NCBI GenBank assembly: GCA_964587725.1
Contig: CAZPLO010000034.1
Coordinates: 1 to 11,332 of the forward strand
Source: an uncultured archaeon
GTDB taxonomy: Archaea > Altiarchaeota > Altiarchaeia > IMC4 > SCGC-AAA252-I15
Length of the DNA: 11,332 bases
Direction of reading: 5' to 3'
Numbering within the stretch: the stretch's first letter is position 1; the number at the start of each line of letters is the position of its first letter. A program made the translations under genes and the position numbers. Shown here piece by piece: positions 1-11,332 of the stretch. The notes beneath the pieces are model-generated. The model was given only the letters and a program-made list of their open reading frames with translations, did no database searches and had not been told where the DNA came from.

Positions 1-1256
1 GGACCGCCGCGCACCAAACCCATCATGCCTGCGGCAGCCACCGCCCCGCCCACCCATTTCATAAGCTGGGTCATCATTAACGGCACAGCCACCAACGCAA
101 CGAACCCACCCAGCAACATGAATATGGCAACCACCTTGCCGATTAAAGCCTGGGAGAAGCTCACGTCCATCTGCCTGTCCAGAGCAACATTATCCCCAGG
201 GTCCACGGCCGTTGAAGTATCAGCCCCGTATCCTGCGTATTTCTCCGATAGGTCGTGTATGCCTGTGGGGTCGCTGGACGCAAGGTTCAGCAGCGACAAC
301 GTGGTTATGGCCAGTATCAGGGCGAACACCGGGCCCATGAAAAGCCACATGACGGTCTTCATCAGCAGGTCGCCGCCGAGGCTCCGGGTGTAGTCAAAGA
401 AGTAGAGGAAGAGTGTGACGGGGAATATTATGTAGAAGAGTATCACCATCGCGTACCTTACCATCAGCAGCAGCACCACCAGCAGGGCGAATGCCGCAAT
501 CCAACCCAGCAGCGTCAGGCCGAACCCGGCGGTCCCTGCGATTATGGCCACCACCAGTGAGACGATGACGCCGGTGAGCACTATGCCTACCAGTCCCAGC
601 CCGGAGGTGGCTGTGGTGGAGCCGCCGAGTAGGTCGTACATTTTGTCGAAGATGGTGTTGGTCATGCCGCGGGCGATTTCAAATAACAGGATGTATATCT
701 TGTTCGAGACGGAGATGAGGAGGACCGCGGTTATGAGTTTGTTGAGCATGCTCTTCGCCTTCGACCGCTGGCCGGGGTCTATCGAGCAGAATATCAGGTA
801 GGCCGCCACGATTAGAAGCTGTACGAACAGCAGAGGTATCAGCAGCTTCAGCATCACCGCGATTATTGGGTCGTAGGCCGACCAGTCCGGCCGCACATTG
901 AGGGCCCACTGGAAGAGCCAGAGGATTCCTTTAATCAGGGCTTGAAACGCCTGCCCTATCGCGTCGAGAATCTTGTTCCATATGATATCCAGTATCCCGC
1001 CCCAGCCCAGCGCACATGCGACGGTGTCTGCGACCGCGAGGGCGCCGACCACGAGGAGACCGATGCCGCCGGTGAGGATGCCGACTACCGCGCCGATGAC
1101 CGCCCACTTCACCAATCTACCCGCCGAAACGCAGCTTTTACCTCCTTCGGTGTCCGACGGGGCGTCCCTGCCACCGGCGTCCGCTATTATCTGCGGCATC
1201 GACGCTGACAGGATGAGGAGTAGTGCCGTGAGGGCGACGAGCTTGCGGACGTTCAT
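1..1256 (-). CDS. VirB6/TrbL-like polytopic membrane protein of a T4SS/Ced-like system; 3'-partial, >418 aa, not in the ORF track
   Basis: Manual translation from the ATG at 1256 is open to the window edge: MNVRKLVALTALLLILSASMPQIIADAGG...YLIFCSIDPGQRSKAKSMLNKLITAVLLI...LLLMVRYAMVILFYIIFPVTLFLYFFDYTRSLGGDLLMKTVMWLFMGPVFALILAI...VPLMMTQLMKWVGGAVAAAGMMG. It has an N-terminal signal peptide and many TM segments. The R-x11-P-(hydrophobic)-F-x-x-T-R hairpin and the later P-x-MM..GG segment resemble VirB6/TrbL. It lies directly downstream of a VirB2-like pilin. The CDS is near-certain; the family call is moderate. Confidence 0.75.
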   Translation of the reverse strand, partial: MNVRKLVALTALLLILSASMPQIIADAGGRDAPSDTEGGKSCVSAGRLVKWAVIGAVVGILTGGIGLLVVGALAVADTVACALGWGGILDIIWNKILDAIGQAFQALIKGILWLFQWALNVRPDWSAYDPIIAVMLKLLIPLLFVQLLIVAAYLIFCSIDPGQRSKAKSMLNKLITAVLLISVSNKIYILLFEIARGMTNTIFDKMYDLLGGSTTATSGLGLVGIVLTGVIVSLVVAIIAGTAGFGLTLLGWIAAFALLVVLLLMVRYAMVILFYIIFPVTLFLYFFDYTRSLGGDLLMKTVMWLFMGPVFALILAITTLSLLNLASSDPTGIHDLSEKYAGYGADTSTAVDPGDNVALDRQMDVSFSQALIGKVVAIFMLLGGFVALVAVPLMMTQLMKWVGGAVAAAGMMGLVRGG

Positions 1257-1279
1257 CTTGGAGGTAAATTAATATTATC

Positions 1280-1287
1280 ATTATAAA
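1280..1287 (-). promoter_or_regulatory. TATA-box-like element for a probably leaderless transcript of the VirB6-like gene
   Basis: TTTATAAT on the minus strand, 24-31 nt upstream of the ATG at 1256, in an AT-rich spacer. No SD-like sequence precedes that ATG. Confidence 0.5.
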
Positions 1288-1317
1288 GAAAAAAGAGTGT
1301 ATTTGGGGGAATATCTG

Positions 1318-1360
1318 AAAAAAAAGAAGGGATTAGGTGCCGGTTGAACCGGCACCTCCC
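1318..1360 (-). terminator. Hairpin plus U-tract terminator downstream of the pilin gene
   Basis: Perfect inverted repeat AGGTGCCGGTT-G-AACCGGCACCT (1335-1357), extendable by GGG/CCC with a bulge. On the minus strand it is followed by CTTCTTTTTTTT (A8 at 1318-1325). It begins about 13 nt after the pilin stop codon. Confidence 0.75.
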
Positions 1361-1373
1361 ACACGTTTCCGGT

Positions 1374-1703
1374 TTATGCGCACTGGCTTCCGAAGACCAG
1401 TACGACAATCCACACCGCGAGCAGGACTATTATCAGTCCGACTACCGCGTGGATTATCCCCTGCTTGGCCTGCTTTCTGGCGCCTGGGTCCTCTGCTGAG
1501 CCAGCCCACTTGATACCCTGCAGCGTAATGACTACTGCGGCTACTCCGCCGGCTATGGCGTACAGAAGATCCCTTATGTTGAAGAGCACGTCACAGATTG
1601 CTGTCTTCGCACTCAAGGCCCCGGTAGACGTCGCACCCGCTGCCACAAAACCAGCCAGTGTCAACACCATAAGACCTGCCAAAAGGGCTCCACTTTTCTT
1701 CAT
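1374..1703 (-). CDS. TrbC/VirB2-family (conjugative-type) pilin precursor, 109 aa
   Basis: Sec-type signal peptide (MKKSGALLAGLMVLTLAGFVAA), then an amphipathic helix, TM1 (LLYAIAGGVAAVVITLQGIKW), a short basic loop (SAEDPGARKQAK) and TM2 (IIHAVVGLIIVLLAVWIVVLVF). This is the typical VirB2/TrbC hairpin architecture. Strong SD upstream. Confidence 0.85.
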   Translation of the reverse strand: MKKSGALLAGLMVLTLAGFVAAGATSTGALSAKTAICDVLFNIRDLLYAIAGGVAAVVITLQGIKWAGSAEDPGARKQAKQGIIHAVVGLIIVLLAVWIVVLVFGSQCA

Positions 1704-1709
1704 CAGATT

Positions 1710-1716
1710 TCACCTC
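1710..1716 (-). promoter_or_regulatory. Shine-Dalgarno sequence of the pilin gene
   Basis: GAGGTGA 6 nt upstream of the ATG at 1703; matches the archaeal anti-SD complement. Confidence 0.8.
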
Positions 1717-1773
1717 ATATATGTTTTAGGTATTGTAAGAAGATGGTAACAAACCCTTAAAAACAGAAAAAAG

Positions 1774-1792
1774 TTGTATATTTGTATACAAA
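1774..1792. promoter_or_regulatory. Candidate operator: TTGTATA repeats and a 12-bp palindrome upstream of the pilin gene
   Basis: TTGTATA at 1774-1780 and 1782-1788, an inverted copy at 1785-1791, and the perfect palindrome TTTGTATACAAA at 1781-1792. It sits next to a TATA-like TTTTTAAG (minus strand, 1756-1763). Confidence 0.4.
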
Positions 1793-1805
1793 ACCTTTTT
1801 TGACC

Positions 1806-2105
1806 CTATTCCATCTCAACCAGATTGCCGTACGGGAACCATGGCTTGCCCGTAACCCTAACTAGAGTGTCGAAGGCGGATTCCTTGCTCCCTGACCGCT
1901 CAGACCACACGTACTCCAGAAACTGGCTCTTGTTTTCAAGCGCGAAACGCACGGCGTACTCTATGACCTCGGACTGGTTCATGCGGATGCCCTGGCGTAG
2001 TATCTTGTAGTTGAGGTTCTTTATGTTAGACAGAGTCATTAAATCCACCCTCTGGGTCGTATACTTCTTTCCCCCACCCCTCTTGTCTCCGGATTTGCCC
2101 GCCAT
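1806..2105 (-). CDS. Ribbon-helix-helix DNA-binding protein (CopG/VapB-antitoxin-like), 99 aa
   Basis: Basic tail, beta-strand YTTQRVD, helix LMTLSNIKNLNYKILRQG, turn, then helix NQSEVIEYAVRFALEN. The S-E-V-I..A-V pattern is typical of RHH helix B. Confidence 0.65.
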   Translation of the reverse strand: MAGKSGDKRGGGKKYTTQRVDLMTLSNIKNLNYKILRQGIRMNQSEVIEYAVRFALENKSQFLEYVWSERSGSKESAFDTLVRVTGKPWFPYGNLVEME

Positions 2106-2128
2106 CAGAACCAGCCCGTTACTAAAAT

Positions 2129-2150
2129 GCAGATATATTAATATATATGC
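2129..2150. promoter_or_regulatory. Palindromic bidirectional TATA element between divergent genes
   Basis: GCA-G-ATATATTAATATAT-A-TGC is a 22-bp palindrome with one mismatched pair. Its centre lies about 34 nt from the RHH ATG (2105, minus) and about 30 nt from the small-ORF ATG (2170, plus). Confidence 0.55.
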
Positions 2151-2169
2151 GGATTATTGAATGTTAACC

Positions 2170-2289
2170 ATGAAAATCGAGCTAAGAGACGACATAACCC
2201 AACGGGACATACTGCTTTTCCTGGGCCTCATCCTATTCCTGATATTCTGGACCTGGTTCGTGTTCTACAGCGGATTCATCCTGGGCTAG
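2170..2289 (+). CDS. Small single-pass membrane protein, 39 aa (42 aa from the ATG at 2161); below the ORF-track cutoff
   Basis: MKIELRDDITQRDILLFLGLILFLIFWTWFVFYSGFILG*: charged N-terminus plus one TM helix. Third codon positions are C/G-rich like neighbouring genes. It fills an otherwise empty gap, has a TATA element at the right distance and overlaps the convergent gene by 14 nt. Confidence 0.65.
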   Translation: MKIELRDDITQRDILLFLGLILFLIFWTWFVFYSGFILG

Positions 2290-3853
2290 GGTTCCTGTAA
2301 ACCAGGTATGCTCCGCTACCGTTGACCACAGGCCAGGACAGCATCTCCCCCGCAGGCTCGGAAGCGTAGTCCGCCACCCACTCCAATGTTCCGTTGGGGA
2401 TTACCAGGTAGTCCGCGTTACGGTAGGAGCAGTTGAATGCATAACGCTCGGGAGGGTACTTTCCATGATAGTAGTCGACTGCGTAGCCCTCGTATACGAC
2501 AGACTGCGTTATTATGGTCGCGTTTCCAAAGTACGGGACGAGGGGGCTCATGGTCAGCACCAGACCCCCCGGCTTCGAATCCGAGGCAACATACGCCGCT
2601 ACGGCTTCAACGTCCATCGGATTCTGTTCTCCAAGGACTCCGCCTGCGGCATAGGCCTGCAGGTTACCCAGGTACGCGAACGCCAGTGGATAGGAGAGCA
2701 GCAGCAGAGCGGTTATAAATCCTGCCTTAGGCTTCAGGTGTTTATACAGTTGCTCCAAGAGGGTTATGACGCCGAGTGCGAAGAACGGGTACATGGGTAT
2801 GAGCATGTGGTCCGAGCGCCCGAACACCAGAACAGACAGGAAGGAGGGGAGGAAGAATACGAGCGTCACCGGAACCCGGTGGACCGCGGGCAAGAAAAGC
2901 AGGCCGACTATTCCGAGCCAGTAGTAGTCCCCGCCCACGAACAATTCCCTGTCCGACAGCGGCTGAAGCATGGTCAAGGAGGTGATGAAGTGGGCCGCCA
3001 GCAGGGCGGCGGGAACCCAGAAGAGTTTGAACAACTCCCTGGTCTCGAATATGTTCTCCACCTCCGACGACAGCAGACGGGAGAGGAATTCAACGACCTG
3101 CCGCCTCTTCCAAGCAGCCGCGGCCAAGATTGGGAGGGCTATGAGAAACTGGGGGCGAAACAACCCCACCCGCTGCACCTGAAACATTACATCCTCCATG
3201 AAATACTGTGAAACAAAAGTCATGGAGGTCGCAAACAGCAGGAAGGGGCCGAAGATAAGCGCCGCCACCTGCGGCATCCGGCTGCGTTCCATGACCATGA
3301 AATAGAGTCCCAATGCTGCGGCCACCAGCAGACCCTGCGGTTCGGTGACCGCGGACAGCCCCGCCAGCAGACAGCAGGGAACCCACCATCGCCCGCCGAC
3401 CTTCACGTATTTTATCATAGAGTACATGGAAGCCACCACCAAGATGCTGAGGAAGTTGTTTGAGAAACCCATTCTCCCCCAGTAGACTGCCGCGGGGTAG
3501 GCCGCGTAGGCGGCGGCCGAATACACTCCAGTGCGCCGGCCACCCACCTCCCCCCCTATCAGGTACATGAGATAGATTATTCCATAGTTTAATGCGACGC
3601 TGAACAGGCGGGAGACGATTATGGACTCTCCGAACACCTTCACCAGTGCAGCCAACGAAATTATGTACAGCGGGGGATGGGGTATGAACGCGTACTCCAG
3701 CGTGAACCACCGGAGACGGCCTTCCGCGAGATTGGATGCGTAGTTGAGGTTGACGCCCTCGTCCCAGTGCCAGTGGGGCACGGTTCCCAGGCTGGGCAGC
3801 CATATGAGAGAAGCCGCCGCGAACACCAGCAGCAGATGCTTGATGGAGGACAT
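2276..3853 (-). CDS. ArnT/PMT-like (GT83/GT39-type) GT-C membrane glycosyltransferase, about 525 aa
   Basis: TM1 followed by WHWDEG (acidic DE pair in loop 1), then HPPLY and SRLFSV, about 11-13 TM segments and a soluble C-terminal domain. The start is reassigned to the ATG at 3853 (MSSIKHLL) because the 3910 extension crosses the divergent promoter region. Confidence 0.85.
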   Translation of the reverse strand: MSSIKHLLLVFAAASLIWLPSLGTVPHWHWDEGVNLNYASNLAEGRLRWFTLEYAFIPHPPLYIISLAALVKVFGESIIVSRLFSVALNYGIIYLMYLIGGEVGGRRTGVYSAAAYAAYPAAVYWGRMGFSNNFLSILVVASMYSMIKYVKVGGRWWVPCCLLAGLSAVTEPQGLLVAAALGLYFMVMERSRMPQVAALIFGPFLLFATSMTFVSQYFMEDVMFQVQRVGLFRPQFLIALPILAAAAWKRRQVVEFLSRLLSSEVENIFETRELFKLFWVPAALLAAHFITSLTMLQPLSDRELFVGGDYYWLGIVGLLFLPAVHRVPVTLVFFLPSFLSVLVFGRSDHMLIPMYPFFALGVITLLEQLYKHLKPKAGFITALLLLSYPLAFAYLGNLQAYAAGGVLGEQNPMDVEAVAAYVASDSKPGGLVLTMSPLVPYFGNATIITQSVVYEGYAVDYYHGKYPPERYAFNCSYRNADYLVIPNGTLEWVADYASEPAGEMLSWPVVNGSGAYLVYRNPSPG

Positions 3854-3925
3854 GTGAGATATTAAGCAGCGGATAAAAAAAGGCGCGGGAGGATTTTTAC
3901 CTGCACCCACCCATGTATAGGTTAT

Positions 3926-5776
3926 ATGAGAGGGGTTATTCAGTCCTTCGTCAGGAACCGCAGATGGGATGTGTTCATGGCACTCTACCTCCTCGCATTA
4001 TTCTCCACCCTCGCCTACAAAACGAATGCAGGACTTTCTGTAAACGACGAGATAGCTTATCTCCTGATGGTGGACCGAACGTCCAAGGGGGGTTTCACGA
4101 TATGGAACGGTCTGAACGAAACCTATTCCGACGAGCTGGTGTTGCACGGCACGGTCAGACAGGACAGCAGCCTCTACGGGGTGCCGCCGCCACTCTACCC
4201 CATACTCGTGCAACCCGCCTATTCATTAGCCGGCTTGGCGGGGTTGATACTCGTCAACACACTGTCCTATGTTGCAGTGGTCGCCCTAGTTTATCTCACA
4301 GCGGATTACGTGGCAGGAGACAAAGGGTTTGCCTCATTCGCAGCCATAGTATACTCTCTGACAGTCTACTCTATAAAGTATGCTGTGGAGCTGTGGCCTC
4401 ACATGTTGTCCGTGTTCATGTGCGCGTCCGCATTCTACCTCACCCTCAGGGGCCGCTCACCCGCCGCCGGCTTGCTCGCGGGGTTGGCGGTGGGTGTCAG
4501 ATACACCAACGGAGCTCTGGCGGCCGCACTACTAATATACATCATATACCGGTTCGGCCTTAAGGATGCGGCATATTTCGCCCTCGGCTTCGGCGCTCCA
4601 GTCGCCGCCATACTATACATAAACAACAGCATCTTCGGCACAGTGTACTCTACGGGATACAGTGTGAGCGCGGGGTTGGATGGGTTTTCACAAGTCCTCA
4701 TCTACCCGGTGGTTTTCGCAGCAGCCGGCGTCTCAGCCTACGTCTTATCCGATAGATTTGGGCGCAGCTCAGCCGTTAAAGCAGCCGCATCCGCCGTATT
4801 GCTGACAGCCCTGTTGTCGTACGTCATGGATCCGGGCTTTGCGGGGGAGGTTTGGCGGTCGCTGCAGATAGCGTACGCGCACCTCGTTGACATGCAAGCC
4901 CACCCGTCCGGATCCGTCCAGCTGGACAAGAAAAGCATACTGCAGGCGTCCCCTGTACTGGCTCTCTGCCTGCTGGCCCCCGCTCTGATGCGAAACCGTG
5001 CTGGCAGACTCAACACCCTCCTCCTCGCCTCCCCTCTGCTGTGCCTGACCGCTGTGTACAGTTCCTTCAGCGTCATGCACGGCGGCAGAGTGTCGTTCAC
5101 TCGCTACCTGCTGGAGGCGATGCCCTTTCTGGGGATACTGGCGGCCTACAGCCTGTGGCACATATGGCGGAGCGGAGAGAAAAATTACGTGATGCTCGTA
5201 CAGGTCCTGCCTTTCAGTTACGCGTTCCTGATACTGGCCATGCTAAGACAGCCGGGTGTTGAGGGGGCCGCCTCGTTCGCAGTCCGATACGCGCCCATCA
5301 CCCTAGCAGCCCTGTTGTTGACGACAGCCATAATCCGACTGAAGACGGGTGAACTGCAACATGTGTTCCTCTTCATCGCGGTCGCGTGCCTGACATACGG
5401 TGCGACCGCGAACGCATTGGATCTGATGAAGACTTCGTCCTCGCGGGAGATTAACCGCGACTTTGTAGTAGAGTTGAACTTCATCCCAGACGACTCCGCA
5501 GTCGTAATCGGCGACGACATCCAAGTCGTCGACGTGGGAGTGCTTAAGATAGACCGCAGAGTCAGGATAGTGGACGCCTCAAGGGACAACTTCAAAGACA
5601 CGCCGAAGCTCCTGGAGTTCTACCGCGAAATGAACATCCCAGTATACCTTTACATGAGAAACTCCACCGACGCTGAAGACGAAGCCTTATACGGGTTCAT
5701 GGAGGAAACCCGGAGCCGATACGGGACACGCATAGTATTAGGTGGCAAGAGAATCGTGTATGAGGTGGGGCGATGA
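3926..5776 (+). CDS. GT-C-fold membrane glycosyltransferase (ArnT/PMT-like), 616 aa
   Basis: SVNDEIAYLLMV, PPPLYPIL, ELWPHMLSVF, GVRY and RYLLEAMPFL motifs; multiple TM segments and a C-terminal soluble domain. Confidence 0.85.
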   Translation: MRGVIQSFVRNRRWDVFMALYLLALFSTLAYKTNAGLSVNDEIAYLLMVDRTSKGGFTIWNGLNETYSDELVLHGTVRQDSSLYGVPPPLYPILVQPAYSLAGLAGLILVNTLSYVAVVALVYLTADYVAGDKGFASFAAIVYSLTVYSIKYAVELWPHMLSVFMCASAFYLTLRGRSPAAGLLAGLAVGVRYTNGALAAALLIYIIYRFGLKDAAYFALGFGAPVAAILYINNSIFGTVYSTGYSVSAGLDGFSQVLIYPVVFAAAGVSAYVLSDRFGRSSAVKAAASAVLLTALLSYVMDPGFAGEVWRSLQIAYAHLVDMQAHPSGSVQLDKKSILQASPVLALCLLAPALMRNRAGRLNTLLLASPLLCLTAVYSSFSVMHGGRVSFTRYLLEAMPFLGILAAYSLWHIWRSGEKNYVMLVQVLPFSYAFLILAMLRQPGVEGAASFAVRYAPITLAALLLTTAIIRLKTGELQHVFLFIAVACLTYGATANALDLMKTSSSREINRDFVVELNFIPDDSAVVIGDDIQVVDVGVLKIDRRVRIVDASRDNFKDTPKLLEFYREMNIPVYLYMRNSTDAEDEALYGFMEETRSRYGTRIVLGGKRIVYEVGR

Positions 5777-7476
5777 GGGGTTGGGTGTTCACTGCATCCG
5801 CCTACCTTTTTCTGGCTTTAGTTTTCACCCACCCCCTCATCCTGAACTTCTCAACCCAGGTCCCCGGAGGCGAGGACGTGGGATTGAGCCTGTGGCAGCT
5901 TTGGTGGTTTAACAAGGCGGTTGGCGGCTGGATGAACCCCTATTGGACGGACCGGATATTCTATCCCGGCGGGGTGAACATGGTGTTTTTCATGCCCTCC
6001 GTGCTGAACCTGGCGGCAGGCACGCTACTGCAGGTTTTTCTCAGCACGGTAGAGGCATACAATACCATCGTGCTGGCGTCGGTGGTTTTGTCCGGATATG
6101 GTATGTACCTGCTGGCCAGGCACCTCACCGGCGACAATAAAGCATCCTTTGTCGCCGGGTTGATTTACGGGTTCAGCCACTACCACATCGGCGAGGTAAT
6201 GCTGGGACACCTCCACACCATGAGTGTGCAGTGGCTTCCATTCTACGTGTTGTTCATGCTGAAGAATTCAATGTGGTCTGCCGTTTTCCTGGCGTTGACC
6301 GCCTACTCCAGCCCCACATACTACGGGTTCGCCCTGATGCTCGCAGCACTCTATCTGACATACCGCCGGTGGAGGACGGGGGAGACCGAATGGACGATAG
6401 TGAAGTCCGCGATCGTTTCACTCGTACTCACCACCCCCATAGCATACCTGATGTTTTCTGAGATGCTGGCTTCAGAGTACATGAACAAAGGCTCTGCCGC
6501 AGACATATATTCCCTAGACCTCCTGGAGGCTCCCGGATTCATAGGCTACGCGGCACTCCTCCTATTCCTACTCCACCTACGGGATGAAGGCGTCTTCAAA
6601 TGGGTGGGCGAGAAGGCTGGGGAGGCTAAGGCGCTCCTGTCAAACCCACGCATACTTGCGTGGACCGTCTCAGCCCCCACCGTATTCTACTTCATCCAGC
6701 CGGTGCGCGACCCCGTGTTGTACGCAGCAGCCATGGCCTCCACCCTGGCACTGATAACCTTGGCCCGACTCACATTAGACGGGGTTCTGGGGTTCTGGAG
6801 TATAGCGTTTTTCGCGTTCACGCTGCTGTCGTTCGGCCCCCTCCTCCGGATCGGCGGCCAGCCCGTGTTCATACTCCCATACATATTCCTCCAACACACA
6901 CCACCATTCACCATATTCAGGACGCCGGTGCGTTTCACCGTGTTGTCCATGCTGGCTCTGTCGGCTGCGGCGGCCTCCGTGCTCAAGAAACTCGACCACA
7001 GAATGCTGCTGGCGGTGGTCGCAGTCGTGCTGCTGGAATACTACCCTGCCATGGAGTTCTCCCGCGCTACCGCACCCGGCATATACGACGGCGTCGGCGG
7101 CGTGGTAGTGAACGTTCCCGTGGGGCCGGCGGAAGTCCTCAGGGAAGGCACCGTCTACACAGTATACTACCCCCTGGCACTGTATTACGCGGCCGTTTCA
7201 GACGCTAAAACTGTCGACGGCTACGGAACCCGGGTGCCGGAATGGACGCTCCAGCAGATGAGGGATAACCCGTTCATAGCGGATGTCATGCACTACCGGA
7301 ACTCGACCCCAGAGGAGATGTGCGAGTCCCTCCGCGGCGTAGACCACGTCATAGTCTGGTGGAGTGAATACGACATCCTCTTCGGCGGGACGGCGGAGCT
7401 GAAGGGTAAGATGGAAGGCCTCTGGTGCCTGGAAGCCGGTGAGGAAGACGGAGCCACCGTTTACTCCGTCGTTTAA
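5773..7476 (+). CDS. YfhO-like GT-C-fold membrane glycosyltransferase, 567 aa
   Basis: PGGEDVGLSLWQLWW, FYPGG, AYN, GHLH, LSFGP and FRTPVRF motifs are typical of YfhO-related membrane proteins. ATGA overlap with the upstream gene suggests translational coupling. Confidence 0.75.
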   Translation: MRGWVFTASAYLFLALVFTHPLILNFSTQVPGGEDVGLSLWQLWWFNKAVGGWMNPYWTDRIFYPGGVNMVFFMPSVLNLAAGTLLQVFLSTVEAYNTIVLASVVLSGYGMYLLARHLTGDNKASFVAGLIYGFSHYHIGEVMLGHLHTMSVQWLPFYVLFMLKNSMWSAVFLALTAYSSPTYYGFALMLAALYLTYRRWRTGETEWTIVKSAIVSLVLTTPIAYLMFSEMLASEYMNKGSAADIYSLDLLEAPGFIGYAALLLFLLHLRDEGVFKWVGEKAGEAKALLSNPRILAWTVSAPTVFYFIQPVRDPVLYAAAMASTLALITLARLTLDGVLGFWSIAFFAFTLLSFGPLLRIGGQPVFILPYIFLQHTPPFTIFRTPVRFTVLSMLALSAAAASVLKKLDHRMLLAVVAVVLLEYYPAMEFSRATAPGIYDGVGGVVVNVPVGPAEVLREGTVYTVYYPLALYYAAVSDAKTVDGYGTRVPEWTLQQMRDNPFIADVMHYRNSTPEEMCESLRGVDHVIVWWSEYDILFGGTAELKGKMEGLWCLEAGEEDGATVYSVV

Positions 7477-7508
7477 CCGTTATATTCGGCGGTGATTCAA
7501 TCTATAAC

Positions 7509-9383
7509 ATGAGGCGGCTTGTAGCAGACGGTGTGGATGCTGCAGCCTACGCCTACGTGCTCGCCGCATTCGTATTCCTCACCGCAAACCTTTCGCCCGG
7601 CCTGCACGTGACGGACGAGGGAGTCTACCTGCTGATGGCAGATTCGATGGCGGACGGCGGAGCCCTCACATTCTGGAACGGACCGGGAGACAGCGTGGAG
7701 TACGAATTCACGGAGGTGGTCCATCTCGTGGACGGGCGAATCGCGCCGCAGTACCCTCCTCTGTACAGTCTCCTCGCAGTGCCGTTCTATCCCCTCAGCA
7801 CATACGGTCTAATAGCGCTCAATTCACTGGCGTTCTGCGGCACCATACTGCTCATATACCACATATCCGACACCCTCTTCTCCGACAAGCTATTGTCTCT
7901 GGCGGCGGGCATCCTGTATTCGGCGTTCACATACGCACCACGATACGCCCTGGGCCTCTGGCCACATTCACTCGTTGTGTTCCTAGTAGCAGCTTCTGTC
8001 TACGCCGCGTTGAAGGGTGTGGGCGGCGACGCTAGATACCTCGCCGCCGCAGGATTTTTGTCGGCCTATGCGGCAGGCGTCAGATACCCTGCAGCAGTGT
8101 ACGGGCTGGTCCTGCTCCTCTATGTAGCGGCCGAGGCCAAGGCTAAGGCGGCGTACTATGTCGTGGGGGGGGCGGCGCCTCTGCTCGCGATGGTCGCCAT
8201 GAACTACGCCGCACACGGAAGCATTCTCCCCTGGTACAGGAACCTCACGGGGGATTTCGGGTTTTTCAGCCACTACCAGGTTTTCACGCTGGGTTTCATC
8301 CTGCTCGCCGGACCGTACCTCGCATGGAGGCTTGGACGCGGCGACGGACTGAAGGTTTCCGCGGCGACAGCGGCAGCATCCGCTGCAGCCATGTACTTCC
8401 TCGACCCCAGTTTCATGTCGCATATGGTAACGTCGCTGCAGGTTATGTTCGCGGAGGTTGTGGACATGGGTTTTTTCCCCGCCGCCGCAGTTCCGGAGGC
8501 TAAGAAGTCACTACTGCAGGCGGCTCCGATGCTGGCGCTGGCCGCAGCCGGCCTCATAGCAGTCAGGAGAAACAGGAAAACATACTACCTACTGCTGATG
8601 CTAGCCCTCTCATCCATCCTCTTCTACAGCATGCGCGTGCACCAGCACGGAGGCAACACACCGTATATGAGGTATTTCCTGGAGTCCCTGCCATACCTGA
8701 GTCTGCTATCTGCCTACGCCGTCCGCCGCCTGTACGGGAGACCAGGTCACGGGTGGAGCATTCTGCTGTTCGGCTCCTTACTCGCCTTCATAATCCTGTT
8801 CTACGTACCTTTATTGGCGTCTCAGGGCCGCTTCCTAGTGCACAGCAGCGTCTACGGGCTTGTTTTCCCACTGACCCTCTCAGCCGCGCTGCTGGTGGCG
8901 TACCCTCTGGTGGAGAGGGGAATCAGATACGCAGGTATCCTGTTCACTATACTGCTCCTCATAACAGCATCGTACACTGTAGTCAATAACATCATATCGG
9001 TCACTGCTGCAAAGAGCGGCAGAGGATACACCGCCGGCATCGCGGAAGAACTCGGCTTCATAGAGGAGGGTTCGACTGTAGTGTACTTCGGCGACTTCAA
9101 CATCCTGTACCTGGCGCCGGTGAAGGCAGACAGGGAGGTGGTGCTGGTGAACGCCGCCCGGGACGGGATGCGGGACACCGTGGATGTTATCGGACGGCGG
9201 CTCCACTCCGGCCCCGTGTATGTGGTGGAGGGGCTGCGGGAAAACTACGCCATTGAGACCACAGGATTCAACAACGGAACCTGGGAGGACTTCGTCGACG
9301 GAAACATAACAGAAGCCTTCCAGGCGTCGTATGTGTGGACGGACGGCCTGGTTCTGCTGAGGCTTAATAATAGACCGTCCTAA
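7509..9383 (+). CDS. GT-C-fold membrane glycosyltransferase (ArnT/PMT-like), 624 aa; paralog of 3926-5776
   Basis: HVTDEGVYLLMA, YPPLYSLL, GLWPHSLVVF, GVRY, KKSLLQAAP and RYFLESLPYL motifs are collinear with the 616-aa protein. TTATATT lies about 25 nt upstream. Confidence 0.85.
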   Translation: MRRLVADGVDAAAYAYVLAAFVFLTANLSPGLHVTDEGVYLLMADSMADGGALTFWNGPGDSVEYEFTEVVHLVDGRIAPQYPPLYSLLAVPFYPLSTYGLIALNSLAFCGTILLIYHISDTLFSDKLLSLAAGILYSAFTYAPRYALGLWPHSLVVFLVAASVYAALKGVGGDARYLAAAGFLSAYAAGVRYPAAVYGLVLLLYVAAEAKAKAAYYVVGGAAPLLAMVAMNYAAHGSILPWYRNLTGDFGFFSHYQVFTLGFILLAGPYLAWRLGRGDGLKVSAATAAASAAAMYFLDPSFMSHMVTSLQVMFAEVVDMGFFPAAAVPEAKKSLLQAAPMLALAAAGLIAVRRNRKTYYLLLMLALSSILFYSMRVHQHGGNTPYMRYFLESLPYLSLLSAYAVRRLYGRPGHGWSILLFGSLLAFIILFYVPLLASQGRFLVHSSVYGLVFPLTLSAALLVAYPLVERGIRYAGILFTILLLITASYTVVNNIISVTAAKSGRGYTAGIAEELGFIEEGSTVVYFGDFNILYLAPVKADREVVLVNAARDGMRDTVDVIGRRLHSGPVYVVEGLRENYAIETTGFNNGTWEDFVDGNITEAFQASYVWTDGLVLLRLNNRPS

Positions 9384-9392
9384 TAGTAGACC

Positions 9393-10199
9393 ATGAGGAG
9401 GCCGGATTTGACGCCGACGACCATGGAATTGGAGGTCGGCTACGTCAACAGGCTCCTGGGCACCGGATTCACCGGGGACGAGGTGAAGTCTATGCTGGAG
9501 AGGATGCGCTACGGCGTCGAATCAGCCGGCGAAAAACTCAGGGTTGAGGTGCCAGCGTACAGGAGCGACATACTCCACCCGATAGACTTGGTGGAGGATG
9601 TTGCCATAGCCTACGGGTACATGGAATTCGAACCCGATGTGCCGGCCCTGTACACGCTGGGTAAGCCGGACCCCCTGGAAGGCTACTGCGGGGAGGCGAG
9701 GGACGTGTTAACCGGCCTCGGCTTCATGGAGGTGATGACGCTCACGCTGACCAGCCGCCGCGATTTATTCGAACGGATGAACGCCCCCGAAGAAGATGCC
9801 GTGGAGGCCGTGAAACCCGTTAGTTCCGAGCAGAGCGTTGCGCGGACGTGGCTGCTCCCGTCGCTGATGGCGGTGTTGGAGAAGAACAGGAACAGGGAGT
9901 ACCCGCAGCGGGTGTTCGAAGTCGGCGACGTGATAACCGGGGAGGGGAAGACCGTCCGGAAGGCCGCCGGCGTCATAGCCCACGGCCGCACAAACTACAG
10001 CGAAGTGAAGGCCGCGGTATTGGGGCTGCTGAACGCCTTGAATCTGGAGTCCGACGAGGAACCATACAATCACCCGTCGTTCATCGAAGGCAGGTGCAGC
10101 AGGAACAGCTATGGCTTCTACGGGGAAGTGAATCCTGAGGTGCTGGGGAACTACGGACTCGAGGTCCCAGTGACCGGATTCGAGCTCCGGCTCAAATAA
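9393..10199 (+). CDS. pheT: Phenylalanine--tRNA ligase beta subunit, C-terminal half only (B5 plus catalytic-like core), 268 aa
   Basis: B5 signature VPAYRSDILHPIDLVEDVAIAYGY, then RTWLLPSLM, YPQRVFEVGDV, HPSFIEGR and GEVNPEVL..FEL (archaeal-type end without B8). It starts at RPDLTP, the usual B3/4-B5 linker. Confidence 0.9.
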   Translation: MRRPDLTPTTMELEVGYVNRLLGTGFTGDEVKSMLERMRYGVESAGEKLRVEVPAYRSDILHPIDLVEDVAIAYGYMEFEPDVPALYTLGKPDPLEGYCGEARDVLTGLGFMEVMTLTLTSRRDLFERMNAPEEDAVEAVKPVSSEQSVARTWLLPSLMAVLEKNRNREYPQRVFEVGDVITGEGKTVRKAAGVIAHGRTNYSEVKAAVLGLLNALNLESDEEPYNHPSFIEGRCSRNSYGFYGEVNPEVLGNYGLEVPVTGFELRLK

Positions 10200-10212
10200 C
10201 ATAGTCTGAAAA

Positions 10213-11301
10213 ATGGATTCTCACCAAGAATACAAGCTGAAGAGGCTCATACGGGAGCTGGACGGGAAGACCGGCAGGCACACGGAGCTGGTGTCAGTGT
10301 ATATTCCGGCGGGCTACGACGTCAACAACGTGTTGACGCAGCTAACGCAGGAGCAGGGCACGGCAAGCAACATCAAATCCAAGGCAACGCGGAAGAACGT
10401 CACCGACGCGTTGGAGCGCGCCATACAGCATCTGAAACTGTACAACAAGACCCCGGAGAACGGGCTGGTTGTGTTCAGCGGCAACGTGAGCGAACGCGAA
10501 GGCCAGTCGGACGTGCAGGTGTGGGCTCTGGAACCGCCTGAAGCGATTTCAACCCGCCTGTACAGGTGCGACAAAGAGTTCATACTCGACCCCCTGAAGG
10601 AGCTGGTCACGCCCAAGGACGTGTACGGCCTCATAGCGGTGGACAACAAGGAAGCCACCATCGCCACGTTGAAGGGCGACCACTACAACATCCTCAAGAA
10701 ACTCACCTCCGGCTACAGCGGGAAGCACCGGGCCGGCGGCCAGTCGGCGCGGCGTTTCGAACGGCTGGTGCGTGAGCAGAGCCACAACTTCAAGAAACGC
10801 ATAGGAGAAGCAGTGGATGAGGTGTTCCTGCCCATGATACAGGACATCCGGGGGCTGGTTATAGGCGGTCCCGCAGCAACAAAGGAGGACTTCATCAACG
10901 GCGACTACATGAACCACGAGGTGAAGAAGAGGATTATCGCCGTCAAAGACATCACCTACACCGACGAATCCGGGATACGCGAGCTCATTAACGCCGCGGA
11001 AGACGACCTCCGGGAGGTGGAGATGGTCCGCCAGAAGGCTTTGATGCAGCGGTTCATGAAGGAACTGATAGAAGACGGCCTCGCAGCATACGGCCCCGAC
11101 ACAGACACCGCATTGGACGCGAACGCAGTCGACACCCTCCTACTGTCTGAGAAGCTGCCCGAGGAAGACATCGAAAGAGACTACGAGAAGGCCCGAGCCG
11201 CCGGCACAGCCGTGGAGATAATGTCTGACGAATTCGAGGAAGGCTATCAGCTCTGGAACACCTTCAAAGGCAGGGCGGCGATACTGCGGTACAGGATTTG
11301 A
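10213..11301 (+). CDS. prf1: Archaeal peptide chain release factor aRF1, 362 aa
   Basis: TASNIKS, YRCDKEF (YxCxxxF) and GGQSARRF motifs; C-terminal AAILRY. Confidence 0.97.
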   Translation: MDSHQEYKLKRLIRELDGKTGRHTELVSVYIPAGYDVNNVLTQLTQEQGTASNIKSKATRKNVTDALERAIQHLKLYNKTPENGLVVFSGNVSEREGQSDVQVWALEPPEAISTRLYRCDKEFILDPLKELVTPKDVYGLIAVDNKEATIATLKGDHYNILKKLTSGYSGKHRAGGQSARRFERLVREQSHNFKKRIGEAVDEVFLPMIQDIRGLVIGGPAATKEDFINGDYMNHEVKKRIIAVKDITYTDESGIRELINAAEDDLREVEMVRQKALMQRFMKELIEDGLAAYGPDTDTALDANAVDTLLLSEKLPEEDIERDYEKARAAGTAVEIMSDEFEEGYQLWNTFKGRAAILRYRI

Positions 11302-11305
11302 AACA

Positions 11306-11324
11306 GTTTAAACCTTTTTTAAAC
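11306..11324 (+). terminator. T-tract terminator after prf1 and/or BRE-TATA of the next gene
   Basis: GTTTAAA-CCTTT-TTTAAAC: a T6 run (11315-11320) inside a 7-bp AT-rich inverted repeat, just after the stop codon. The function is ambiguous at the window edge. Confidence 0.4.
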
Positions 11325-11332
11325 AATATAAA

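Follow-up and report, generated by a model that had tools for sequence, protein, structure and literature searches.

The Sulfolobales and Desulfurococcales Ced system and the Thermoproteales Ted system import DNA, and the available portion of PMC9905601 describes them as chromosomal, domesticated archaeal derivatives of type IV secretion systems (T4SSs), with a VirB2-like pilin, a VirB6-like channel and a VirB4-like ATPase but without a relaxase. Patescibacteria, also called the candidate phyla radiation (CPR), carry another T4SS, derived from mating-pair formation class FATA (MPF-FATA), which according to the accessible text of PMC12102498 is chromosomal and lineage-wide, has a monoderm-class VirB4 and VirB6-like proteins, and lacks a relaxase; as cited there, one cultured strain cannot grow epibiotically without it. 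Conjugation systems of the MPF-FATA class itself occur in Bacillota, Actinomycetota and Mollicutes, with VirB4 proteins of the CD1110 and Mbov_0397 families. Features of all these systems recur in a gene cluster that begins on contig CAZPLO010000034.1 of assembly GCA_964587725.1, from an uncultured archaeon of the Altiarchaeota. The window, meaning the whole stretch of DNA analysed, comprises bases 1–11332 of this contig (C34), and the genome (G000) amounts to 1.56 Mb in 48 contigs and is 92% complete.

Window positions 1–2105 are read here, with a confidence slightly above even, as the promoter-proximal end of a chromosomal T4SS-derived cluster of ~17–20 kb that is fixed and vertically inherited in the order of this archaeon and whose substrate is most likely DNA. 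Judged by homology, the cluster comprises VirB2-type pilins, two VirB6-like proteins with built-in pilin-like hairpins, a PrgI/VirB3-like protein with a VirB4-N-like domain, and one VirB4. The initial annotation of the sequence had proposed a domesticated, chromosomal T4SS-like machine, and the presence of VirB4, the housekeeping flanks and a VirB4 tree that follows taxonomy agree with that proposal.

The likeness to the Patescibacteria T4SS includes TrsD/VirB4-N-like and VirB3/PrgI-like proteins adjoining VirB4, as well as VirB2 pilins of PF04956 and PF18895, which in Patescibacteria often form variable arrays (both points from the accessible text of PMC12102498). The cluster differs in its host, an archaeal order, in its giant VirB6-like protein of 1,600–1,770 aa, and in a C-terminal nuclease-fold domain on VirB4, the word "nuclease" not appearing in the available portion of PMC12102498; moreover, Patescibacteria genomes usually keep VirD4-like type IV coupling proteins (T4CPs) according to the same portion, whereas none was found in G000. 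With MPF-FATA conjugation systems the cluster shares the best family matches of its VirB4, PrgI and pilin-like proteins. Unlike them, it is not part of a mobile element, it has no detected T4CP, relaxase or cell-wall hydrolase, and its VirB4 carries the extra C-terminal domain outside the plasmid matches; it also has VirB2 pilins, which the accessible text of PMC12102498 reports as absent from MPF-FATA.

With Ced and Ted the cluster has in common, beyond the traits already named, a VirB6-like protein with a pilin-like N-terminal region and a cleavable pilin signal peptide as in TedC (available portion of PMC9905601). It departs from both in its PrgI/VirB3-like and TrsD-like parts, its two VirB6-like genes, its Zn-ribbon gene and its nuclease fusion, and in having no HerA, Rad50 or ParA genes in the cluster. 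Sequence kinship to Ced is remote: the VirB4 of this genome, encoded on contig C41, scores 54.6 bits with the CedB model (cut-off 700) and 45.9 bits with CedD (cut-off 600), while the CD1110-type model gives 305, so that the protein is not a Ced member; in NCBIfam, the window pilin and membrane protein matched only the Mbov_0395 pilin-like family (the pilin, below cut-off). The Ced-like relationship suggested in the initial annotation is therefore abandoned, and the system appears, on sequence similarity, nearer to the monoderm (MPF-FATA) and Patescibacteria T4SSs than to Ced. In organisation and lifestyle it resembles the Patescibacteria T4SS, and it fits the concept of domestication known from Ced and Ted. 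Judged by title, no paper treating a T4SS or VirB4 in Altiarchaeota or a VirB4–nuclease fusion was found; Tables S2–S4 of PMC12102498 might include Altiarchaeota sequences.

Gene order and components of the cluster

The window begins at base 1 of C34, and its third gene, coding for a large membrane protein, is therefore cut by the assembly and not by biology. The rest of the locus had been expected to the left of the window, as is confirmed by relatives in which it is contiguous and by a public contig of 11,571 bases that spans window positions 1–1222 and continues ~10 kb past base 1. A VirB4-like ATPase, likewise anticipated, is encoded at C41 2568–4838 (minus strand) on a 6.4-kb contig and is the sole full VirB4 in G000; a protein identical to it is recorded on an 11,571-base contig. 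Upstream of VirB4 on C41 lie the gene of a 302-aa PrgI-family protein (PF12666, 33.8 bits against a cut-off of 27), the second half of which resembles the VirB4 N-terminus, and then a 200-aa open reading frame (ORF) cut by the contig end; downstream are two more pilins and SepRS.

Both halves are contiguous in three relatives of the same family (L034, L035 and L036), where the RHH gene of L034 was found by a separate homologue search and the L036 pilA was seen in the palindrome comparison (RHH, ribbon-helix-helix). The order starts with glycosyltransferase-like genes, followed by the RHH-like gene, pilA, the giant VirB6-like gene (1627–1771 aa) and a gene for a 155–167-aa Zn-ribbon protein; it continues with a second VirB6-like gene (657–682 aa), a gene for a 334–398-aa protein, the PrgI-like gene and VirB4; and it ends with one or two further pilins (one to three among relatives as a whole), then SepRS or D-aminoacyl-tRNA deacylase. 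The C-terminus of the 334–398-aa protein matches the cut ORF of C41; for this protein no Pfam, NCBIfam or PHROG family was found, and its ESM Atlas model (predicted template modelling score, pTM, 0.20) gave no usable match. Among 30 further loci found through VirB4, 14 show the order VirB6-like, x, PrgI, VirB4, 12 are cut less than 5.5 kb upstream, and 4 have different genes upstream; the PrgI-like gene stands directly upstream of VirB4 in 28 of these loci, the other two being truncated at contig ends.

The C41 VirB4 passes the Pfam cut-offs for P-loop_TraG (84.5 bits, cut-off 25.8), AAA_10 (54.7, cut-off 27.5) and DUF87 (51.5, cut-off 23.2). Its NCBIfam matches include the CD1110-family VirB4 (1e-90), the VirB4 of the Mycoplasma integrative and conjugative element (ICE; 2e-73) and CedB (7.3e-15); the VirB4 models of NCBIfam range from 1e-90 to 1.6e-35, all under their equivalog cut-offs. 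Across 100 VirB4 orthologues, the Walker motifs A (GTSGGGKS) and B (VDEAW) show conservation of 95% or more. Automatic annotation already labels some orthologues "VirB4 family" or "TraC". Plasmid VirB4 proteins of the CD1110 family from Bacillota and Actinomycetota show 26–31% identity and align with residues 3–600 only. Fragments of a second, divergent VirB4 with 32–40% identity were observed at two contig ends (G000:C27:15530-15865 and G000:C45:12-515), one of them with a TAA stop, and several relatives carry intact PrgI–VirB4 fusion paralogues of ~1,100 aa (33–42% identity), which may belong to mobile elements.

Residues 590–756 of VirB4 form the extra C-terminal domain, outside the plasmid VirB4 alignments. 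Its model has a predicted local distance difference test score (pLDDT) of 92.3, and the best Foldseek matches are NucS/EndoMS, MUS81, YaeQ, FokI, HindIII, XPF and Hjc (best E 1.7e-3). In VIA-align, Can2 reaches Z 9.3 (root-mean-square deviation, rmsd, 3.2; 114 residues aligned), VC1899 9.2, R.BspD6I 7.8, Hjc and VRR-NUC 7.5 and NucS 7.2. The matches from both programs are almost all PD-(D/E)xK nucleases, and the domain probably adopts a PD-(D/E)xK nuclease-like fold, its activity being putative. Its likeness to these nucleases (Can2/Card1, the R.BspD6I small subunit, Hjc, VRR-NUC and NucS) lies in Z values of 9.3–7.2 at rmsd 2.6–3.4 over ~90–114 aligned residues and in an invariant PD...E...K pattern; unlike them, the domain has its lysine off the ExK position, is fused to a secretion ATPase and has no sequence-family match. 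Residues H64, F65, T87, P90, D91, A103, E105 and K122 are invariant in an alignment of 23 sequences.

Free-standing homologues of this domain occur in four relatives, and two of the four adjoin C5 cytosine methylases (PF00145, 3.8e-64 and 2.2e-59). These two lie at L068:13-3731, where a GHKL-type ATPase is also encoded, and L069:1768-3557, and both places resemble loci for restriction-modification or defence. When 1.84 billion representatives were searched with a profile, 479 clusters were returned at E of at most 1e-3; among the best 150 of these, 40 match the VirB4 body too, including all 17 of at least 700 aa, and 110 do not. The matches include proteins from metagenome-assembled genomes (MAGs) labelled Nanoarchaeota and Diapherotrites, so the VirB4–nuclease fusion is wider than the order.

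The pilin of the window matches Pfam T4SS_pilin (PF18895) at E 3.2e-12 and 46.8 bits, above the cut-off of 26.6, which upholds its earlier naming as a VirB2 pilin; in NCBIfam it reaches the Mbov_0395 pilin-like family at 2.4e-6, below that family's cut-off. Its orthologue in L034 also passes PF04956 TrbC (37.1 bits, cut-off 27.9). The protein consists of a signal peptide and two hydrophobic helices flanking a DPGARKQAK loop, and homologues are conserved in relatives. A second pilA copy is found at G000:C14:30049-30375 (L021:3050-3376), with 75% protein identity and 74% DNA identity over 209 bases; it lies away from any VirB4 and is flanked by a protein of 254 aa and a membrane protein of 755 aa.

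The truncated membrane protein is represented in the window by 418 aa with ~8 hydrophobic segments, for which no Pfam or NCBIfam match of its own was found, while its orthologues measure 1627–1771 aa. The N-terminal domains of 19 orthologues and paralogues were aligned, and the AlphaFold model has pLDDT 70.6 and pTM 0.62. In Foldseek, chains of R388 TrwI/VirB6 make up seven of the nine top matches (best E 0.011, probability 0.97–0.99). VIA-align gives 7o3v_F (TrwI) Z 10.6 (rmsd 5.8, 243 of 261 residues aligned), DotA of the Dot/Icm T4SS 10.4, two further TrwI entries 10.2 and the next unrelated entry 7.4, values to be read with the program's own note that Z below ~13 is unsafe for helical proteins. 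Because Foldseek returned no match at or below 1e-3 for either the VirB6-like or the VirB4 C-domain model, the fold readings draw on rank, probability and VIA-align Z scores. Only 3 of the 19 family members show Pfam TrbL (PF04610), at best with 5.7e-4 and 20.1 bits (cut-off 25.9), and the PDB sequence-profile search with the domain gave no match.

Residues 145–195 of this protein match the pilins in a profile–profile comparison of 12 pilins with 19 VirB6-like domains (probability 93.5%, E 2.3e-7, 51 columns), and PF18895 itself matches 9 of the 19 family members. It has been reported that the same kinship exists between CedA and CedA1 and between VirB6 and VirB2 (available portion of PMC9905601). 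From the fold match, the hairpin and the gene context, the membrane protein is read as VirB6-like. Its family is present in 39 of 41 relatives with several copies per genome. The C-terminal 1,200 residues of the giant protein are poorly conserved, and no family was found for them. Three more giant VirB6-like paralogues of 1036–1438 aa were observed in G000 (C7:1-7498 and C28:7695-14870), with long Lys/Gly/Ala-rich or acidic tails, the C28 paralogue coming after a cysteine-rich secreted protein of 1,181 aa; VirB6-like genes of ~310–380 aa stand in tandem arrays of four to five in a different family of the order (Table 1).

The first gene of the cluster encodes a protein of 99 aa. Its comparison with PDB sequence profiles yielded a single chance-level match (E 0.53), and no Pfam, NCBIfam or PHROG match was obtained; the ESM Atlas gave a lead to a MetJ cluster (0.93, with 156 shared features against a guide value of 170). 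The homodimer model has an ipSAE of 0.61, compared with 0.01 for the best control, and the runs show contact agreement of at least 87%, partner pLDDT of at least 58 and an interface that includes residues 14–25, putatively the N-terminal strand; a custom alignment was used, and the homodimer mark is reached by 20 of 30 solved homo-pairs and by 1 of 23 single chains. Homologues are found in 12 of 40 relatives, in 9 of these just upstream of the VirB6-like gene. The palindrome TTGTATA-N4-TATACAA lies between the stop codon of this gene and pilA; its core occurs in the same place in the loci of four relatives (L034, L030, L029 and L036), and the pattern TGTATA-N4-6-TATACA has one occurrence in the 1.56-Mb genome as against ~0.08 expected from base composition. 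The protein is predicted to be a homodimeric DNA-binding regulator with an RHH-like candidate fold.

Substrate, inheritance and competing explanations

In the proposed mechanism, the small dimeric regulator would bind the palindrome and control pilA, and the PrgI-like protein would dock VirB4 to the VirB6-like channel. VirB4 would then drive the extraction of signal-peptide-processed pilins, pilus growth and substrate passage, the substrate being DNA moved between cells in one direction or the other. The nuclease-like domain may cut or vet this DNA at the cytoplasmic mouth of the channel, where it could stand in for a relaxase or gate incoming DNA in the manner of restriction. DNA is considered the most likely substrate in view of the nuclease-like domain joined to the motor and because no coupling protein or relaxase was found. 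In G000, the only matches of the T4CP models PF02534 and PF10412 were to P-loops of 45 residues in HerA-like ORFs of 507 and 508 aa, FtsK (PF01580) gave nothing above cut-off, and three relaxase families were tried (PF03432, PF02486 and PF08751), with no matches in this 92% complete genome. A more far-reaching version, put forward tentatively, holds that this is a third, independently domesticated archaeal conjugation machine in Altiarchaeales and some DPANN, in which a restriction-like nuclease welded to VirB4 replaces relaxase and coupling protein and, at the mouth of the channel, cuts or vets DNA, perhaps by its methylation state.

The same domesticated machine may, alternatively, not move DNA, and could provide contact pili or a channel for adhesion, biofilm contact, delivery of proteins or effectors, or uptake of other macromolecules, as has been put forward for the chromosomal T4SS of Patescibacteria, with the nuclease-like domain regulatory, defensive or inactive; this chief rival reading is possible, though rated as rather unlikely. 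It would suit the 15 PF18895 matches above cut-off in G000, including a tandem array on C3, and the extra VirB6-like paralogues (the three giant ones in G000 and the tandem arrays in relatives), expansions that resemble the variable VirB2 arrays of Patescibacteria and of host-interaction T4SSs in the accessible text of PMC12102498. It would also suit the rapid divergence of surface-exposed parts, the giant VirB6-like protein having 23–31% identity while VirB4 stays at 63–83%, as well as the lack of a detected relaxase or coupling protein and the non-canonical catalytic motif of the nuclease-like domain. On the other hand, the nuclease fold with invariant D, E and K is present on every orthologous VirB4 examined (23 of 23), without a substrate of nucleic acid it would be hard to account for its fusion in 17 or more distinct full-length VirB4 clusters, its free-standing homologues associate with DNA methylases, and the domesticated archaeal T4SS kin Ced and Ted move DNA (available portion of PMC9905601).

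That the cluster is a common integrated conjugative element, or what is left of a plasmid, present in this genome by chance, is very improbable. The VirB4 class is typical of monoderm conjugative elements, with best plasmid matches at the identities given above, and the divergent VirB4 paralogues in relatives together with the broken fragment in G000 imply that mobile T4SSs visit these genomes. The distribution of the cluster argues otherwise. Of 49 genomes from the order, 45 have a VirB4 that was found (12 of 13 for those of high quality), and none was found in 12 genomes from two other families of the same class; all of these genomes are MAGs, and the counts are not independent, because collections overlap and genomes are interrelated. 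A maximum-likelihood tree of VirB4 was built from 39 orthologues with 2 paralogue outgroups. Six group labels require five changes on this tree, which is the minimum, whereas shuffled labels require 17.8 on average and none of 200 shuffles is as low. All 18 members of family f5 fall on one branch (support 91), family f3 is held together (support 100), and family f1 makes up one clade in which the only f4 sequence is nested; genera with several sequences are kept together except g1, the genus of the window, with G001, and g4 is unresolved.

In 27 of 34 genomes the identity to the VirB4 of this genome equals or exceeds the corresponding identity of eRF1 (the means being 71.4% and 66.8%, with a Spearman value of 0.63), and VirB4 is conserved as strongly as this release factor. 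VirB4 and eRF1 lie on the same contig, within tens of kb, in 12 genomes. The housekeeping flanks in this genome are eRF1 and PheT (window) and SepRS (C41), and in relatives ThrRS, ribose-5-phosphate isomerase (RpiA), FtsY and an amidohydrolase; the conserved synteny with eRF1, SepRS and ThrRS speaks against a chance remnant. The initial annotation had left an integrated element as the outcome to be guarded against and had pointed to synteny and vertical inheritance as the check, and both results speak for a resident cluster: it is order-wide with a tree that follows taxonomy, and neither integrase nor tRNA was detected near it. The window and the loci L018, L037, L038 and L042 contain no tRNA, and no integrase family was found among 10 flank ORFs and 9 window ORFs scanned, border direct repeats not having been searched. 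The G+C content of the region, 0.50–0.58, is close to that of the genome (~0.57). It is highly improbable that the resemblance is superficial, with small membrane proteins of no T4SS kinship in the window and a connection to C41 that arose by coincidence of assembly or binning, as the membrane protein's lack of its own family match, the missing overlap of the C34 and C41 ends and the 48-contig assembly might suggest, since gene order is contiguous in relatives, the window is continued by the public contig, the pilin scores above a curated cut-off and the fold match ranks VirB6 and DotA first.

The reading of a vertically inherited T4SS-derived cluster that moves DNA has, besides the interdependence of the genome counts, several further points to its disadvantage. 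DNA as the substrate draws solely on the nuclease-like domain and on analogy, and the most similar described chromosomal system, that of Patescibacteria, is thought to have been co-opted for non-conjugative roles (accessible text of PMC12102498). The C-terminal domain has no Pfam, NCBIfam or PHROG match, the lysine at the canonical ExK position is not conserved, and the first acidic residue, E63, is replaced in three of the four free-standing homologues; the domain could for these reasons be inactive or merely structural. The best NCBIfam score of VirB4, 305.1 bits, stays below the CD1110 family cut-off of 325. The VirB6-like identity claimed in the initial annotation is retained on the structural side, where the model ranks R388 VirB6 first, but sequence matches at curated thresholds are lacking and the Z of 10.6 falls under the safe level for helical bundles; the RHH assignment, similarly, is favoured indirectly by the MetJ lead, the homodimer model and the conserved palindrome, but the fold has neither family nor PDB-sequence support. 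Finally, ~8–9 kb between C34 and C41 is missing from the assembly. The two contig ends have no overlap of 12 bases or more, and in a tblastn search of G000 the C-terminus of the giant protein, the Zn-ribbon gene, the second VirB6-like gene and the N-terminus of the 330–400-aa protein were absent, the genome's own copies of these four genes not being seen because of this gap.

Window features and neighbouring genes

The three cluster genes of the window, described earlier as co-oriented, were confirmed as ORFs on the minus strand, and their positions are collected in Table 1 with those of the other features. The neighbourhood of glycosylation and translation genes was also found as described: the window contains a PMT_2 glycosyltransferase-like gene, three further large membrane proteins, PheT domains and eRF1. 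As had been noted, no mobility gene was detected: the scan of 9 window ORFs gave no family of integrases, relaxases or transposases. Public sequencing runs that carry the window are four DNA runs from one study, two of which may have supplied the assembly, with no RNA run listed.

Table 1. Positions of the cluster features in the window and of short VirB6-like gene arrays in relatives.
Feature	Position	Strand	Remarks
RHH-like gene, small basic protein of 99 aa	1806..2105	-	ORF; first gene of the cluster
Palindrome TTGTATA-N4-TATACAA, candidate operator	1774..1791	.	between regulator gene and pilA
pilA, VirB2/TrbC-type pilin precursor, 109 aa	1374..1703	-	PF18895; signal peptide and two-helix hairpin
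Giant VirB6-like membrane protein, N-terminal 418 aa	3..1256	-	runs off the window edge
Pilin-like helical hairpin in the VirB6-like protein (residues 145-195, loop DPGQRSKAK)	672..824	-	profile-profile match
Tandem short VirB6-like arrays	L056:6987-12919; G040:C30:1325-4957; G026:C1:1245575-1250050		

Between 2276 and 9383, the window encodes four successive large polytopic membrane proteins of 544, 616, 567 and 624 aa. The first of them (544 aa) matches PMT_2 (GT-C type), those at 3926–5776 and 7509–9383 are paralogues of each other, and homologues of these large polytopic proteins also flank the T4SS-like cluster in relatives. PheT is apparently split, as the window gene at 9393–10199 (268 aa) contains only B5 and catalytic-like domains and the B3_4 domain is found in a separate 265-aa frame at G000:C1:219340-219717. 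In the interval 1257–1373, 3' of the pilA stop, a G+C-rich hairpin (GGTGCCGG...CCGGCACC) is followed by a T8 run, and an A+T-rich stretch lies between this run and the VirB6-like gene; a partial terminator and an internal promoter are possible readings of these. A scan for sigma-70 promoters and intrinsic terminators found nothing exceeding shuffles, with a bacterial model applied to an archaeal host, and the hairpin with its T8 run is for that reason given as a mere observation.

Meaning for the biology of the order

Domesticated conjugation machinery in archaea has so far been described only for the hyperthermophilic Ced and Ted systems, and here a different T4SS lineage appears to be fixed throughout an order of archaea that are uncultured and mostly from the cold subsurface. 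If DNA is moved, the cluster would offer a concrete route of gene flow for Altiarchaeota and DPANN, with relaxase-free processing of the substrate; and if it is indeed a third domestication, chromosomal DNA exchange would be a core function, conserved to the degree of a translation factor, in a lineage for which biofilms and metagenomes are the only sources known. If DNA is not moved, the cluster would be the archaeal counterpart of the enigmatic T4SS of Patescibacteria. Either way, the pilin, the nuclease domain and the pair of palindrome and regulator are defined targets.

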